64,000 nt of DNA, taken from the NCBI GenBank assembly GCA_964016885.1, contig OZ024746.1, forward strand, positions 86,056,001-86,120,000. Direction: 5' to 3'. This document shows, one piece after another, positions 19,481-52,025 of the stretch. A model generated the notes under the pieces. That model saw nothing but the letters and a program-made list of their open reading frames with translations, had not been told where the DNA came from and ran no database searches. Within the stretch, counting starts at the first letter, position 1; each line of letters starts with the position of its first letter. Source of the stretch: Eledone cirrhosa. Taxonomy: Eukaryota. The position numbers were made by a program, and so were the translations under genes.

Positions 19481-20117
19481 ATATTAGGTATAAATCGTTG
19501 TAGCTGCCAAATAGCAGGAACTAAGCGAGTTGTTTGAGACAATCACAGAGCACTCAATGGAGCGAAAAGTTAATAAATTATCGTCCAGAATAAACACAAA
19601 AGTTAAAAAATGTGACACCAAGAAAAACGACCGAAGGCAGTGGCCATACATATACCACAACAACGACAAATATATACATATATATATATTTTTTCTGATC
19701 ATTTCCTTCGAATGAAACAGTTCTAGTCCTGTAGAAGCCATTTCTATATTAAATATTTATACTCTGCTATGAGTACCTTACTTACTGTAGTTAACCCCGA
19801 TTTAACCCGACACACACACACACACACACACACACACACACACACACACACACACACACACACACACACACACACACACACACACACACACACACACACA
19901 CACACACACACACATATATATATATATATATATATAACCAAAGATTAATATGGTTCATTGATTACTCAATGAATATAGTTTTACAATAGATTAAAAGCAC
20001 TCTACAAAGAAGTTTTCTGGAGTTATTAATATTATTCAAAATATTAATAAATTTGATTATGTGAACGTCTTCATTTATTAATATTTTGAATAATATATAC
20101 ATATATATATATATATA

Positions 20118-20290
20118 GGAAAAAGTACGTTTCGACGGCTATTTCTGTACGCGTCCAGAAATAGCCGTTGTATCGGCTTGAGCTCTGCCGTCGGGGTCAT
20201 ACCTTTTCCTATTTCCCACTCTACTATCCTAAGTATTGAGAACTCTGGTGCGTTATGGTCCATCTGGTTCCTTGCCACAATTCTTTCGTT
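20118..20290 (+). mobile_element. PLE-like terminal-repeat fragment, family with copies at 24532, 27192 and 57120
   Basis: Carries the 3' half of an HHR (CGGC..GCCG-TC-GGGGTC), a short 5' inversion and a shared 3' tail. Flanked by (TA)n. Confidence 0.65.
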
Positions 20291-20402
20291 ATATATATAT
20301 ATATATATATATATATATATATATATAGAGAGAGAGAGGTAGAACACTGGAAGGTAATATCCGTAGTGGTAGAACACTCAGTCCACGGGACGAGTTGGGT
20401 AA

Positions 20403-20550
20403 AAGTGGTTACACAACAATTAGTTCACCATACAGAGAACAATTGTTTCACCTTAGCTGTTCCGTATTACCATGTCCATTACGAGCTGACGATCCGCTAA
20501 GGTGAAACAATTGTTCTCTGTATGGTGAACTAACTGTTGTGTAACCACTT
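20403..20550. repeat. 55-bp-arm inverted repeat containing a hammerhead (20481-20522, +)
   Basis: Arms 20403-20457 and 20496-20550. Motif GAG-CTGACGA-tCCgctaaGGt-GAAA-CAATTG-TT-CTC, same family as 16661. Confidence 0.8.
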
Positions 20551-20975
20551 CTATATGTATATATATTCGGGATACATTTACAGCTGACGATGGAAACTCC
20601 TTTCTTCCTTTCTCCTCCTGTTCCGTCCTAACCACCATCCTAAACCTTGTTTTTAGTAACCACACAGCCCCTTTCATAACTTTTTGTATATATATATGGA
20701 ATAGACTGAAACGAAATTTCATTTCTCACTCTTAGTGCGGCAGTTACTTAAATGTAAGTATGTATGTATGTATACGTACATACATATATGTATACAGACG
20801 TACAGTAGTATGTATATATATACATACATGCACACATATATACATGCACGTATCGGCTTACCGAACATTTATTATAATGCTCAGTTTGTTTGTTTGTAAA
20901 CAAACAAACAGCCCGAATTACGCCGTACAGTGTTTAGGCAACCACGTCACCTTTTTGTTCAACACGGACACAGGA

Positions 20976-21018
20976 ACGATGTACTAGTTTCAAGCTTATT
21001 AGCTATCGTCAGCATCGT
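20976..21018 (-). ncRNA. Minimal type I hammerhead ribozyme (intact core)
   Basis: Minus strand: ACGATG-CTGACGA-tAGCtaataaGCTt-GAAA-CTAG-TA-CATCGT. The downstream tail is repeated at 27495-27720 and 23095-23132. Confidence 0.8.
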
Positions 21019-47859: not shown

Positions 47860-49248
47860 GTAAAAGGCAAACAGCAATAACAACACAACCGGTACAGTAT
47901 ATGGAAGGAATAGGTTAGGTTAACGCTTGAAATAGCAGGAAGAGGGTGTTAACGTTTCGAACGTTAGTCTTTCATCAGAAGAAAAAATGAGAAATTAGAA
48001 AGATTGAAGGGACGGGCGGGGTGGAATTGGAAAAAAATGTTTTTAGAGAAAAATAACCGGTCCATTGATGTTGCCCACTATGTTCATACACGGATCTCGT
48101 ATAAGCGCCTAAAGATAGGCCACAATTTAGATGCCTCTTGTATTTTGAAGGTGTAGTCAATATTGTCCTTTGAAACCTTGTGTAGCGCCTTTGTTTCATG
48201 CGTGAACATAAATAAATAACATAAATAAATAATATAATATTTCCGCTCTCTTCCCTTTTGAGCACTGTTTTCCTTTTTCTTTTTCACTGCTAGAGGTATT
48301 GCTACACACATGATATATATATATATATTTTACCTATTTATATCATTGTTTTACGATCGTTTCGAAGGGTTGATCATACTGACATATTGACTGACCTATA
48401 GTAGTTATATAACTGTATACTATCAGACTCCATCTATAGGTTCTATTAGACCCCGCGAAACGACCGTAAAACAATGATATAAATAGGTAAAATGACTTGA
48501 CTTGGTTATTATTATTTTCATTGTTAAATTAATATCTAATATCAGATTCTGTATTTAAGGAATTAACTCAGCGGAACACGCAACCTTTCTATAGATTTCA
48601 CTGGATTACTCGATATCAGATTACATTGAGTTCTATCTACGATACGGACCCTGCCACGAATGGTAGACCGCATTGAAAAGAAAAAAATATATATACATAA
48701 AACTTTATTTTAACATCCTTTTATTTTTCATTTTTTAACGTTATTTTCTTTGCAATTTTCCTTTTGTCTTATTCCCAATGAAGAGCAAATGTCCGATACA
48801 TTGACTATGTAACTCATTCTTCTTCCTCCAAGCGTGAAACTAATACATTTATAAACTTCATGTTATTGCATCCTCTTGTTTGTTCGTTTGACACGTTTTT
48901 ACCATTTACACACACACACACACACGCACACACACACACACACATATATTCTAGGGCGGGTAAAATTCCCGAGATCCATGGACGAGTTCTCTCCAGCGGT
49001 CTCTGTCCCTCATTATCGCTGCCATGTCCTGCGTCTCCATATATACATTATATATATTTTACCTAAAGACATTTTTTCTAATTCCACCCCGCCCGTCCCT
49101 TCAATCTATCTTATTTCTCATTCTTTCTTCTTATGAAAGACTAGCATCCGAAACGTTAAGACCCCTTTCATGCTATATCAAGCGTTAACCTAATACATTC
49201 CTTCCATATATTGTACCGATTGTGTTGTTATTTCTGTTTACCTTTTAC
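47860..49248. repeat. ~185-bp inverted repeat pair (47860-48046 / 49062-49248), each with a minimal HHR-like motif
   Basis: Minus: CTGATGA-aagactaacgttc-GAAA-CGTT. Plus: TCTT-CTTATGA-...-GAAA-CG-TT-AAGA. A 3' fragment also lies at 22803-22841. Confidence 0.7.
48328..48492. repeat. 37-bp-arm inverted repeat with HHR 3' half (GAAA-CGATCG-TA)
   Basis: TTTTACCTATTTATATCATTGTTTTACGATCGTTTCG and its inverse at 48456-48492. Confidence 0.7.
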
Positions 49249-50764
49249 ACACACACACACACACACACACGCACACGCACACGCACACGCACACGCACAC
49301 GCACACGCACACACACACACACACATACACACACACACACACACCAACACACACATATATATATGAATATATGAATGGTAAAAACGTGTCAAACATTACA
49401 CACTGTAGAAAGACGTAGCTGTGTTGAAATTAAAAATATTCCAGAAGTATTTTACAAATTATAGAGAAACATATATTGTAAGTAACGGAGATGGTCACGT
49501 TTGAATTGATGATGTTTCAGTTTATTTATTTAAACAATTCTTTAATTAAGACATTCTGGAACAAATTCCAGAATGGTTTCGAAGCATTCAATTATGTCAA
49601 TCCTTCAGAAACGTACGTAATATATATCATGGTATGTTATGGGGTGGTGGTAGGGTTTTGATTAATTACAGTGTCTAACCACTATAAATCGCTAACTACT
49701 GCATTGTTTTACTGGCGCTACCATTAAGGTGAACTAGACAGCTACTTAAGGCGCAAATCTCAGAGAAGCGCAATACTGAACCTGAAAGAATCAGTTTTAT
49801 AAAATTTGTATGATTAAATTTATTTATATAAAAACGAAAATGACTGTATGAAGGCGTTGCATTTCCACAGTTTCCATCCGATTTTGTTCAAATTTGATAC
49901 ATAGGTTATTTAGCTCCCGGAGCATGCCACCATATAGTTTAAATCGTGCTCTCCCCTAAAATAGTAGAGCTCTAGGCTATCTAAAGACGCCCATGCTGAA
50001 GAGAGAGAGGTGGAGTCTTATTTACAATGACGAAAGGTGTGTTCAGCAACGACGGTCTCTTTTGCTAGTTTAATATATAATACAATAATTTCCTGTAATC
50101 AATAAAGAAATCACTAACTAACTTTGTTGTGTAGCAACGTAGTGGAAATATCAAAATCGGTAGACAGGGTCGTATGGTGATCTGACATACCATATGATTT
50201 GGTGTGGGCGAGGGTGGACTATGTTGTTTGAAATGCAAGCTCAGTAATTTTTTATATGTGATAAAAGCTAGAAGTGTCAAAATCTAGGCTCGTCAGATTA
50301 CCAAACTGTGAGGTGAAATCTTTTGTTTGAAACAATGGGGCCCATTACTGGGAGAATGGTGTAGATATTGTAGAGGTACCATAGGTGTAAAATACCTAGG
50401 TACAGGCGCTGATTATCTGGCTAGCTGAAGACCGACTAACAATGTGAGGTGATGGTTTTGTACCTTACTTGTAACATAATAAAGGTTTGTCATACTTTTG
50501 TTTGTCTGATATGGAAACCTTGTTCAAATCGAATCTGTATGAAATGTGTAAGTTTGTAAATATTTAATGCCTACGCATTCATACATACATCATGGTGAAC
50601 AATCTACTATGGTATTTCCCTCTATCCAATAATCTCTCTCTCTCTCTCTCTCTCTCTCTCTCTCACACACACACACACACACACACACACACACACACAC
50701 ACCACTCTGTCATATACACACACGCATACATATATACGTATATAAGATTATTCAAAAATCCCAA

Positions 50765-51612
50765 ATCCAGGACCTTCTCCCACTTGTTGGAGGTATCCCT
50801 CTTTGGTTGACCTACACCGCTTCCTATCTCTGGCCATATTGGGTCATGTGGGGCCGAAATATCAGATCATCGCGCCTCTGGCTTTTGGCCACTATCTCTA
50901 TCTTCTCTGCTGCCTTGGTGTCCACTCTGTCACTCTAATAGTCCACCTGTTTCGTCTTAAACGAAAGACGTGGCCAGCTTATCTATGTTTGCCCTTCGTG
51001 ATAGTCTCTATTATGACCTTCATGCTAGTCTGCTGACAAATCTAGGTGTGGATCTTCCTGTCATTTAAGGTGATGCCAAGCATGATTCACCCTATTTTAC
51101 GTTGGGCCACTGCAAGAGTCTCTACAGAGGTGGTGTTTAGTGTCAACATTTCACTTCCATATATCATCACCTGCAGAACATATTCATTTAACAGATTTCT
51201 TTTAGTTTCAAGTGTTGACTTGGAACTTCTAATGATGTTATAAACTTTTCCAAAAGCTGCCCAGCCAATCACAATCCTTCTTTTGACCTTCAGAAGTAGG
51301 TTACCATCTCTTGCAACCTTATTTCCAAGGTAATAACTGTCTACTTCCTTGATGGTCTTTCCATTCCACAATAACTAACTTGTGATAGTTTAGTATGGCT
51401 ATTAAAGTATGACCTTGGTTTTCCCAAGATCGATGTTAAGGCCTACTGGTTGACTCTCAGTGTGGAGAGCATTGAACATCTCCTCCAATTCTTGTGGTGT
51501 ATGTGTCATTAGGATGATATCATCTGTGAAATCTAGGTGACATAGGACTTCACCATCTATGTTGATACCCTTGTTCTCTGTCTTAATGTAATCTGAGAGT
51601 CGATGTAGCGCC
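50765..51612 (-). mobile_element. RTE-clade LINE 3' fragment (RT C-terminus)
   Basis: GINIDGEVLCHLDFTDDIIL..., GLNIDLGKTKV, YYLG, VMIYGSE; disrupted. Confidence 0.8.
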
Positions 51613-51642
51613 ATTGTAAATATATATATATAGAGAGAACAG

Positions 51643-52025
51643 GAAAACGAAAAATCAGTGATGCATCTGAACTCAATTTATTGTGTGTTACAATTGTTTC
51701 GCCGGCGGACAGCTCGAGACGCGATCATTGTGTGCATCTGTCTGATTCTGGACCCGCAGGTTCGACGGACACGTCTAATGATTTCGGAGCATATTCTCTC
51801 CGAAATCATTAGAGTGTTCGTCGAACCTGCGGGTCCAGAATCAGACAGATCTCCCACAATGATCGCGTCTCGAGCTGTCCGCCGGCGAAACAATTGTAAC
51901 ACACAATAAATTGAGTTTAGATGCATCACTGATTTTTCGTTTTCTATTCTATCATACTCTGCTCCGTAAGAGCATAGAGTGCTCAACCGGTATACCGCCT
52001 ATGGAAGCATCTTGGCTACCATTTG
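51643..52025. repeat. ~145-bp-arm palindrome (51643-51944) plus unpaired 3' tail
   Basis: Near-perfect arms centred at ~51793, containing GAAA-CAATTG-TA-ACAC (HHR 3' half). Confidence 0.85.

Follow-up and report, generated by a model that had tools for sequence, protein, structure and literature searches.

A covarying stem-bulge hairpin opens the optional 3' tail of Hydra-clade-like Penelope-like elements in Eledone cirrhosa

In this study, we revisited a 64-kb stretch of the Eledone cirrhosa genome (contig OZ024746.1, positions 86,056,001 to 86,120,000 of the forward strand; the whole stretch is referred to here as the window), in which a number of otherwise dissimilar inserts end in an unpaired tail and in which these tails contain one and the same small hairpin. 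The question raised by this locus is what the hairpin is, which elements carry it and what it may do at this place. The elements concerned turned out to be Penelope-like elements (PLEs), the least understood class of eukaryotic retrotransposons, whose reverse transcriptases (RTs) are the closest relatives of telomerase; to our knowledge, only one PLE has been studied biochemically. We show here that the motif is a real covarying stem-bulge hairpin whose outer helix (ACTC/GAGU) is constant and whose inner helix changes in sequence. It forms the conserved start of an optional 3' tail of Hydra-clade-like PLEs, where, as we propose, it probably docks the RT in such a way that cDNA synthesis can start on either side of it. 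Positions given without further label are those of the window, and L-numbers (L173, L204 and so on) denote other loci of the same genome.

The motif can be written as 5'-ACTC, an inner helix of 3-7 bp of any sequence, a loop, a bulge of 1-3 nt on the 3' strand and GAGT-R-C-T. The bulge is mostly T plus one base, and ACTC, the bulge and GAGT-R-C-T are constant between families. Searching the window with the pattern ACTCN{8,30}GAGTRCT gave 8 matches, compared with a mean of 0.75 and a maximum of 3 in 100 dinucleotide shuffles, none of which reached 8. All examples named in the original prediction, which had been made from the letters of the window, are present where it had placed them, and three copies can be added to its list, at 19996-20023(-), 37491-37518(+) and 20374-20395(-), the last with GAGTGTT. 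The motif had been placed roughly 35-55 nt from the 3' end of the inserts, and this agrees with the 34-60 nt that separate the end of the motif from the flanking microsatellite in all eight window copies listed.

Covariation was examined on two alignments. The first, A1, is a hand-checked seed alignment of 14 sequences from 8 labelled families, some of which are closely related. In this alignment 87.9% of cells are paired, against 24-58% in slid controls; the four outer pairs are invariant, and double changes are found at six of the six inner pairs. The covariation score of A1 is 0.393, compared with 0.161 after shuffling, and the observed score was reached in none of 500 shuffles. The second alignment, A2, consists of 29 distinct sequences, taken from the window and from 30 unbiased genome matches and aligned with a covariance model, R1. 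Here 89.5% of cells are paired, versus 19-62% for slid partners, and again none of 500 shuffles reached the observed value. The kind of change involved can be seen at pair 12-37, which is UA in 17 sequences, CG in 9 and UG in one, and at pair 14-35, which is CG in 13, AU in 7, GC in 4 and unpaired in one. A compensatory change in the inner stem had been predicted from a handful of copies, and it is borne out on both alignments at all six inner pairs. The impression that this is not a named motif likewise held, in that no Rfam family matched the window at gathering level.

The hairpin is by no means confined to the window. In the 3.0-Gb genome, the pattern ACTCN{12,20}GAGTRCT gave 150,813 matches and its reversed form 9,298, a 16-fold difference that corresponds to about 140,000 occurrences above chance; like all counts from our own genome searches, these numbers are lower bounds or first-look candidates rather than copy numbers. 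The generic pattern has a density of about one copy per 20 kb, which agrees with the 22 model matches found in 385 kb of loci that had been picked for other reasons. For the TGCTC-type pattern alone, 2,968 genome matches were found versus none for the reversed control. As an unbiased sample we took the first 30 pattern matches in positional order, and all of these are element tails. A microsatellite follows within 130 nt downstream in 28 of the 30, compared with 152 out of 509 positions drawn at random from these loci, and the anchored inner stem has a mean length of 3.57 bp, as against 1.24 bp after shuffling. The distance between motif and microsatellite ranges from 20 to 79 nt and is family-specific, being 48 nt in nine copies of the family designated F2 and mostly 61-64 nt in another family. 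The inner helices also differ by family, and include TACT/AGTA, TGCTCY/RGAGCA, TAC-UUCG-GUA, CAA/TTG, CAGT/ACTG, GTCC/GGAC, TATTTT/AAAGTA, TGGGGT/ACCTCA, CGGAGT/ACTCCG (also ACTYCG), TGCAT/ATGCA and TAAGGTA/TACCTTA.

The inserts that carry the hairpin sit inside (TA)n microsatellites and consist of a long near-perfect palindrome followed by an unpaired tail of 75-100 nt. Rather than a single folding unit, the palindrome is an inverted copy adjoining a direct copy of the same PLE 3' end, and each of the two has its own 5' truncation point; in L061, for example, the inverted copy exceeds the direct one in length by about 330 nt. Simple 5' truncations, which consist of the direct copy and the tail only, are numerous and include L001, L010, L011 and L022. 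The combination of fixed 3' ends with variable 5' ends indicates target-primed reverse transcription. The tail is usually present on one copy of the inverted pair, as in the inserts at 24530-24712 and 27192-27385 and at L014, L019, L029, L069 and L173. There are two alternative 3' ends: the tail-less copy stops 1-11 nt before ACTC, at a position we call site 1, and the tailed copy stops 20-79 nt past the motif, at site 2. In family F2, which has GACCCCGACGG arms, the two ends of a pair read ..TTCCTAT followed by (TA)n and ..TTCCTAT-TACCC-ACTC..tail..CGTT followed by (TA)n. Measured from ACTC, the end of the tail-less arm falls between -11 and +2 in 18 of the 22 pairs tested; the other four comprise two readings of a double-tailed palindrome in L106 and two overlapping regular-expression matches in element bodies (at 27296 and in L019). 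Tail-less copies also occur on their own, an example being 57122-57183(+), a 5'-truncated copy of the 3' end of the F2 parent element, H1, which stops at site 1 (..GGGGTTAAACATTTTCCGAT, then ATAT). Contigs assembled from public runs of the same organism end at the same place, with 34 matching the F1 copy described below up to 51952 and then continuing as (TA)n, and nine turning to (CT)n at 51950. Contigs of three further organisms contain parts of the F1 element in small shares, which we do not take as evidence on its distribution.

The coding parents of these 3' ends could be identified. The motif is absent, on the element strand, from the best-scoring Pfam GIY-YIG loci of the genome (30 loci, with 20 downstream and 20 upstream flanks), because these belong to other PLE clades. 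Walking upstream from F1 copies gave a unit of only about 580 nt, and the parent was reached later via L117/L173 and L067. Two F2 copies, which have about 830 nt of upstream sequence in common, lead to L173, where a plus-strand open reading frame (ORF) encodes the RT motif YRDD, the linker CNCPDRS(T/I)C (CxCX5C) and a VIY..YIG endonuclease. This ORF is followed by an 800-nt 3' untranslated region (UTR) terminating, at the tail-less site, in the F2 body, and a head-to-head, internally deleted partner at the same locus ends in body and tail with the motif. A genome search with the H1 endonuclease gave 66,305 first-look candidates, 150 of which were scored and show 81-100% identity. Among 30 H1 endonuclease loci, eight are tailed and carry the motif, eleven are tail-less, two have the body end followed by other sequence, and nine have no 3' end within the flank. 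Uninterrupted H1 frames of 788 and 786 aa are present in L204 and L205, the first with a tailed and the second with a tail-less 3' end. In both of these elements an upstream pseudo long terminal repeat (pseudo-LTR) ends in body and tail and continues directly into the 5'UTR, with the first in-frame ATG about 95 nt past the tail. Since the tail is internal at these loci, the template RNA would continue 3' of it.

Two lineages related to H1 carry the hairpin with other inner helices. While H1 has the TACT/AGTA tail, H2a has the TGCTCY tail and H2b the CGGAGT tail. The H2a endonuclease is about 40% identical to that of H1, lies directly upstream of the UTR segment in 19 of 20 loci, and belongs to an element whose 3'UTR holds the F1 body. 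The H2b endonuclease is 77% identical to that of H2a, and in L218 the CGGAGT tail follows it at a distance of 1.3 kb. The links of H2a and H2b to their tails rest on few copies that reach the 3' end; for H2a, five of 20 loci reach the F1 body end, two of them with a TGC-type tail (L236 and L248) and three tail-less. At the protein level, a collinear alignment of 437 residues (E = 2e-06) joins H1 to a canonical PLE found elsewhere in this genome, for which Pfam gives RVT_1 and GIY-YIG matches, whereas Pfam gave only a weak GIY-YIG match on H1 itself (E = 0.069) and no RVT_1 match, and no PDB sequence matched the H1 protein at E<=1. Two other origins were considered and rejected. A second PLE lineage, P1, is not the parent, as 30 P1 loci are without the motif and an F1 copy behind P1 in L160 is a separate insertion into the same (TA)n. 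A Helitron-like or other DNA transposon is excluded by the variable 5' truncation with fixed 3' ends, by the lack of TC/CTRR termini and by the linkage to an RT-endonuclease ORF. The window inserts are mostly extreme 5'-truncated 3' ends of coding PLEs and not separate partner families. The original prediction had placed the motif in the tails of unrelated hammerhead families and read it as a candidate structure of PLE 3' extensions; the location in PLE tails stands, but the carriers are related PLE lineages, as the endonucleases of H1 and H2a indicate, and no Rfam hammerhead was found in the F1, F2 and H1 sequences tested.

The F1 copy in the window belongs to the tail of H2a. Its hairpin, of the TGCTCC/AGAGCA type, lies at 51956-51983(+), reads ACTC-TGCTCC-GTA-AGAGCA-TA-GAGT-GCT and scores 44 bits with model R1; most genome copies have a T at 51965, forming a T:A pair, and a minority have a G at 51969, forming a C:G pair. 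The tail as a whole extends over 51953-52025(+), from just past site 1, the tail-less end at about 51950-51952, to site 2 before a (CA)n(TA)n repeat. Upstream of it, the long 'hairpin' of the F1 body at 51641-51950(+) is made up of two copies of the H2a 3' end, the first inverted and 5'-truncated, the second direct. A hairpin of the TGCTCT/GGGGCA type (27.3 bits) is found at 23270-23297(-) in a short F1-like insert at about 23237-23385. Three copies belong to F2 and thus to the tail of H1. The first, at 20218-20243(+) in the insert 20110-20290, is of the TACT/AGTA type and has GAGA in place of GAGT. The second, at 24639-24665(+), is of the TACT/(T)GTA type, and the left end of its insert (24530-24712), read on the minus strand, is a tail-less end. 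The third, at 27315-27335(+), has lost the loop (TACT-AGTA), and the left end of its insert (27192-27385), at 27192, is again the tail-less site-1 end.

The sequence signature of H1 is Hydra-clade-like in the sense of Craig et al. (2021; PMC8557442), an assignment that relies on shared residues and not on placement in a tree. The comparisons made here and below with published elements refer to part of the text of the papers concerned. These authors list as hallmarks of PLEs 5' truncation, an adjacent inverted truncated copy, partial tandems and a tail of 30-40 bp at one end, and they also report targeting to (TA)n. Like Hydra-clade elements, H1 has a single ORF in which the RT is followed by a C-terminal GIY-YIG domain, has DKT for DKG (SDKTGN) and the CxCX5C linker (CNCPDRSIC) in the L204 and L205 translations, and has CxxC and CxH around a conserved E and N (CNLCSEE and ACKH in the same two translations). 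The two cysteines are missing from the GIY-YIG core in the Hydra clade; the core of H1, VIYQCNVRTDTSNKAYIG, has only one, and the canonical PLE in L093 has LIYAIKCKGCNEDYIG. Insertion into (TA)n is a further likeness, as is the host range, since Hydra-clade hosts are aquatic invertebrates, Mollusca among them. At the position of the RWK motif H1 reads RLRWR, with RWR for RWK, which may be a departure from the clade; it further differs in its unit length of about 3.55 kb versus 'generally <3 kb', and in that Rfam detected no canonical hammerhead (L204:700-930, E<=10). No tail motif is described for the Hydra clade in the main text of that paper, where the words 'hairpin' and 'stem-loop' do not occur. 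Non-autonomous PLE partners, such as the MRC1-type element of Chlamys (PMC8557442) and animal non-LTR retrozymes (bioRxiv 10.64898/2026.07.22.740005), resemble the inserts studied here in being short non-coding units that have the 3' end in common with coding PLEs and form partial tandems, as at L030; unlike in those systems, no active hammerhead and no tandem organisation of the circular-RNA type was found for the window inserts.

How could one hairpin come to lie between two alternative ends? We suggest that the element RNA, transcribed from tandem or pseudo-LTR arrangements, would read through the tail, and that the RT-endonuclease protein would bind the hairpin, in which it would recognize the sequence of the ACUC/GAGU clamp, of the bulge and of RCU, but the shape of the inner helix. 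The same protein would nick (TA)n on both strands, and the cDNA would start either just 5' of the hairpin, at site 1, giving a tail-less copy, or at the end of the tail, at site 2. If nicks in the top and bottom strands were to prime at different sites, an inverted pair with a single tail would result. The two copy ends would then correspond to two internal RT start sites on a read-through or tandem RNA, as has been measured for the Poseidon element of Anolis (Frangieh et al., 2024; PMC11167929).

Our literature search for tails, extensions, stem-loops and hairpins of PLEs returned this last paper as the only relevant one. According to the part of the report considered here, purified Anolis Poseidon (PAc) protein cleaves and extends both DNA strands, the RT starts at two adjacent internal sites in an RNA stem-loop, RNA 3' of these sites is required, and the optional tail is the stretch between the two start sites (Frangieh et al., 2024). 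The layout found in E. cirrhosa is similar in that a fraction of copies carries an optional 3' extension, which is the stretch from one alternative end to the other, with a stem-loop at the start sites; the RNA template runs 3' of these sites, and the whole lies near the junction of pseudo-LTR and ORF, downstream of a hammerhead or hammerhead-like motif. The use of both target strands in the Anolis system also fits the inverted pairs seen here. The two systems are not identical, however. The tail lies about 95 nt before the ATG, in the 5'UTR, in E. cirrhosa, versus 111-118 nt inside the ORF in Anolis; the stem is not AC-rich, unlike that of Anolis, but combines a constant ACTC/GAGU clamp and a bulge on the 3' side with an inner helix that covaries across many lineages; the clade is Hydra-like rather than Penelope/Poseidon; and the start sites, which were measured for the Anolis element, are deduced here from genomic ends. 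Internal initiation at two sites was thus demonstrated in the Anolis work, and the RNA signal responsible was left undefined in the text considered. The layout itself is reproduced here, with a longer tail and a sharply defined hairpin between the two ends. The E. cirrhosa genome can be regarded as a natural mutagenesis series, in which one hairpin between two copy ends is common to many lineages and to more than 100,000 copies, and this makes the hairpin a directly testable candidate for the signal that docks or positions the RT. For annotation, it means that the common inserts of the 'long hairpin plus unpaired tail' kind in (TA)n are inverted truncated PLE ends and not microRNA-like hairpins or ribozymes.

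Some long interspersed nuclear element (LINE) RTs, termed 'stringent', recognize 3' stem-loops that have been borrowed by short interspersed nuclear elements (SINEs), as in the eel UnaL2/UnaSINE1 pair and with the R2 3'UTR. The hairpin described here is similar, being a short conserved 3' RNA structure that is common to a coding element and to short derivatives and presumably acts as the handle with which the RT selects its template. In the LINE/SINE systems, initiation takes place at the RNA's 3' end and gives simple 5'-truncated copies, whereas here it would be internal, at two sites that flank the hairpin, with the inverted and tandem products typical of PLEs. A wider generalization can be put forward, though only tentatively, as we regard it as somewhat less probable than not being so: the ACUC/GAGU clamp, the 3' bulge and an inner helix of free sequence may constitute a universal docking site for Hydra-clade Penelope RTs inside a longer RNA, and the hairpin with about 60 nt would suffice for insertion into (TA)n. 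If this were the case, such sufficiency would explain the more than 100,000 copies, down to mini-inserts of 150 nt, and the hairpin would represent the first cis-element to be defined that directs internal initiation by a telomerase-related retroelement RT, and one that could be transplanted onto other RNAs.

Several observations weigh against the docking proposal. Binding of the RT to the hairpin is proposed on the basis of its position and of the analogy with the Anolis element. With 75-100 nt, the tails are longer than the 30-40 bp of known PLE tails. The tail of the coding elements is situated in their 5'UTR region, and the hairpin may therefore have a role in transcription or translation. 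The double-tailed arrangement of L106 and the body-inverted arrangements of L015, L017 and L021 are not predicted by the simple model. As to the covariation, A2 was fitted to the model and the families are kin by descent, and therefore the shuffle controls overstate its significance. Folding lends little thermodynamic support: the hairpin is part of the minimum-energy fold in six of nine tails, with z-scores from -2.36 to +0.96 that are mostly not significant, and mismatches of the inner helix comprise 14 G·U and 12 A·C, which means that the selected strand, RNA-sense or complement, is not indicated. Lastly, the hairpin is lineage-specific. P1, which serves here as a comparison element without the motif and is represented in the window at 45560-47281(-) by a weak GIY-YIG match, is very abundant, with 35,743 first-look candidates in a genome search, and has an optional tail of its own of about 60 nt, which comes in two subtypes without the ACTC/GAGT motif (a tail copy lies at about 4440(-)). 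Among the P1 copies in the loci examined, 17 are tailed and 24 tail-less. An optional tail is thus general among the PLEs of this genome, and the hairpin is specific to the H1/H2 group. The original prediction had spoken of a candidate structure for RT recognition or RNA processing in PLE 3' extensions; the PLE tail, the compensatory changes and the fixed position relative to the element ends were all found, while recognition by the RT is suggested by the position of the hairpin and by analogy with the Anolis element.

Could the selected entity be DNA rather than RNA? The hairpin or its duplex might be a site that the GIY-YIG endonuclease recognizes, or a structure in the first-strand cDNA that serves second-strand priming or the resolution of intermediates. 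Earlier work cited by Frangieh et al. (2024) found that recognition and cleavage by the endonuclease of Drosophila Penelope depended on the presence of the tail sequence in the DNA, the 14:12 ratio of G·U to A·C does not favour the RNA-sense strand, and the inverted pairs as well as rare double-tailed palindromes such as L106 show that hairpin chemistry takes place at the DNA level at insertions. However, new insertions enter (TA)n and not tails, as a microsatellite comes after the motif in 28 of 30 copies, and covariation that preserves pairing points to a single-stranded fold rather than to a sequence recognized in duplex form. The bulge is, moreover, consistently on the 3' strand in the sense orientation. 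We consider a DNA-level signal unlikely.

No more probable, in our estimate, is a role of the hairpin in the expression of the coding element, for example as a 5'UTR, promoter-proximal or translational control element, in which case it would be found in tails only since the cDNA starts beyond it. This would be consistent with its internal location in L204 and L205, between the end of the pseudo-LTR and the first in-frame ATG, and with the consideration that conservation across lineages can be maintained only in coding master copies, where 5'UTR functions also act. It does not account for the two ends that closely flank the hairpin, site 1 lying 1-11 nt upstream and site 2 at a family-specific distance, nor for the fact that non-coding-looking families, such as the 620-nt unit of L030, retain it intact. 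The Anolis element, furthermore, needs the stem-loop at the start sites and RNA 3' of it for initiation (Frangieh et al., 2024).

Much less can be said for the idea that the motif is part of, or accessory to, a self-cleaving hammerhead unit and serves RNA processing instead of reverse transcription, which we regard as very improbable. Published PLEs do have hammerheads near the tail (PMC8557442, PMC11167929). In H1, a three-way junction reminiscent of a hammerhead is seen in the minimum-energy fold of the body just before the tail (L204:729-828(+)); its strands are 7, 3 and 1 nt long, GUC precedes helix I about 30 nt before ACTC, and the same sequence class is found upstream of the window F2 tails. 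The 7-nt strand, however, is UUGAGAA and not CUGANGA, with U3/A8 where hammerheads have a C3-G8 pair. Rfam gave no gathering matches in the window and no hammerhead among the best 150 of 267 weak matches; at E<=10, no hammerhead was found in window regions 51630-52030 and 27180-27390, in L071 1310-1730 or in L204 700-930, which cover F1, F2 and H1 sequences. Scans of the palindromes by Rfam E-value gave weak matches to microRNA families only. The F1 and F2 inserts have only GAAAC...GUC/GUA half cores and no three-way-junction core of the CUGANGA...GAAA form, and in the palindrome of a further family, F3, CUGAUGA and GAAA are present in a relaxed scan with helix II beginning 4 nt off both. In most tail-bearing inserts the 5' half of the junction has been truncated away. 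P1, in which alone the relaxed scan found true cores, presents the converse case, with a canonical-looking hammerhead core (CUGAUGA-GGUCACA..UGUGAC-GAAA) at 45743(-), 55296(-), 59734(-) and 59849(+) but without the motif, and in Anolis, hammerhead mutants were without effect on insertion (Frangieh et al., 2024). A functionless motif, either shared by inheritance within a single diverged repeat or matched by chance in low-complexity sequence, is equally disfavoured: the carriers do all descend from PLE lineages that are related, and of the roughly 150,000 copies most are dead and merely inherit the sequence, but the motif is 16-fold above the reversed control genome-wide and about 10-fold above chance in the window, and lineages with endonucleases of about 40% identity and otherwise unalignable tails keep ACTC/GAGTRCT exactly and have swapped the inner helices for different complementary sequences. 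Docking of the RT by the hairpin thus remains the reading we prefer.

Further motif copies in the window belong to other families. The F3 hairpin at 38277-38315(+) reads ACTC-C-GT(C)ACTT...AAGTAC-ATT-GAGT-GCT, with one bulged C in the inner stem; its insert contains an inverted pair at 38003-38267 (127-nt arms, 98% complementary), and the tail reaches to about 38350. Close by, the F5 hairpin at 37491-37518(+), ACTC-TATTTT-CTT-AAAGTA-TG-GAGT-ACT (37.8 bits), is a solo tail between (CT)n and (TG)n(TA)n. The F15 hairpin at 20374-20395(-), ACTC-GTCC-CGT-GGAC-T-GAGT-GTT, lies in a hairpin-plus-tail insert at about 20333-20553 that has relatives at L121 and C1:4691573. An internally deleted copy, ACTCTGCTATGAGTACC, is found at 19761-19777(+), and related intact forms, ACTCTGC(A/T/C)ATGTATTGAGTAC, occur in L082, L090 and L098. 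The F4 hairpin at 19996-20023(-), ACTC-CAGA..TTTG-TA-GAGT-GCT (38 bits), in an insert at about 19938-20108, represents a group of AT-rich tails, and a second hairpin, UCAUUGA/UCAAUGA, is predicted in it by folding. Members of this group (19938-19995(-) in the window; L115, L129, L138 and L070) have the second hairpin about 25-30 nt past the first, with compensatory changes between families, TTGTTGA/TCAACAA versus TCATTGA/TCAATGA.

Some arrangements of the inserts deserve separate mention. The palindrome at L106:166-3607 is 3.4 kb long with arms that are 95% identical, and consists of two head-to-head PLE copies, both of them tailed, with nested tail-bearing elements of families F9 and F10 at its centre. 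In L015, L017 and L021 (around position 1500, motif strand), the inverted arm passes straight into the tail, so that the body is reversed relative to the tail and no direct copy is present, and in L004, L008 and L020 the tail is preceded by no more than a few bases of the body. Both ends of H1 copies have the form ..YUAU, namely CCUAU before UACCC at site 1 and CGUUAU before CUAG at the end of the tail (L204:835-840 and 912-918; window 27303-27310 and 27380-27385). A (TA)n primer end could base-pair at these H1 ends, though not in all families; for the Anolis element, by contrast, 'no homology' was reported in the part of the paper considered (Frangieh et al., 2024).

The (TA)n microsatellites collect several kinds of retroelement. 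tRNA-derived SINE-like copies, with minus-strand sense, lie at 24360-24485 and 27040-27165, beside two of the tail-bearing inserts and in the same (TA)n tracts. An F2 tail in L030 is followed by a fused LINE 3' fragment. The same locus (reverse strand, about 1570-2370) contains a non-coding unit, about 620 nt in length, whose tail hairpin is TGGGGT/ACCTCA; directly before it, 140 nt of its own 3' end are repeated as a partial copy. The result is a partial tandem of the pseudo-LTR-like kind, with the tail abutting the 5' end of the next unit.

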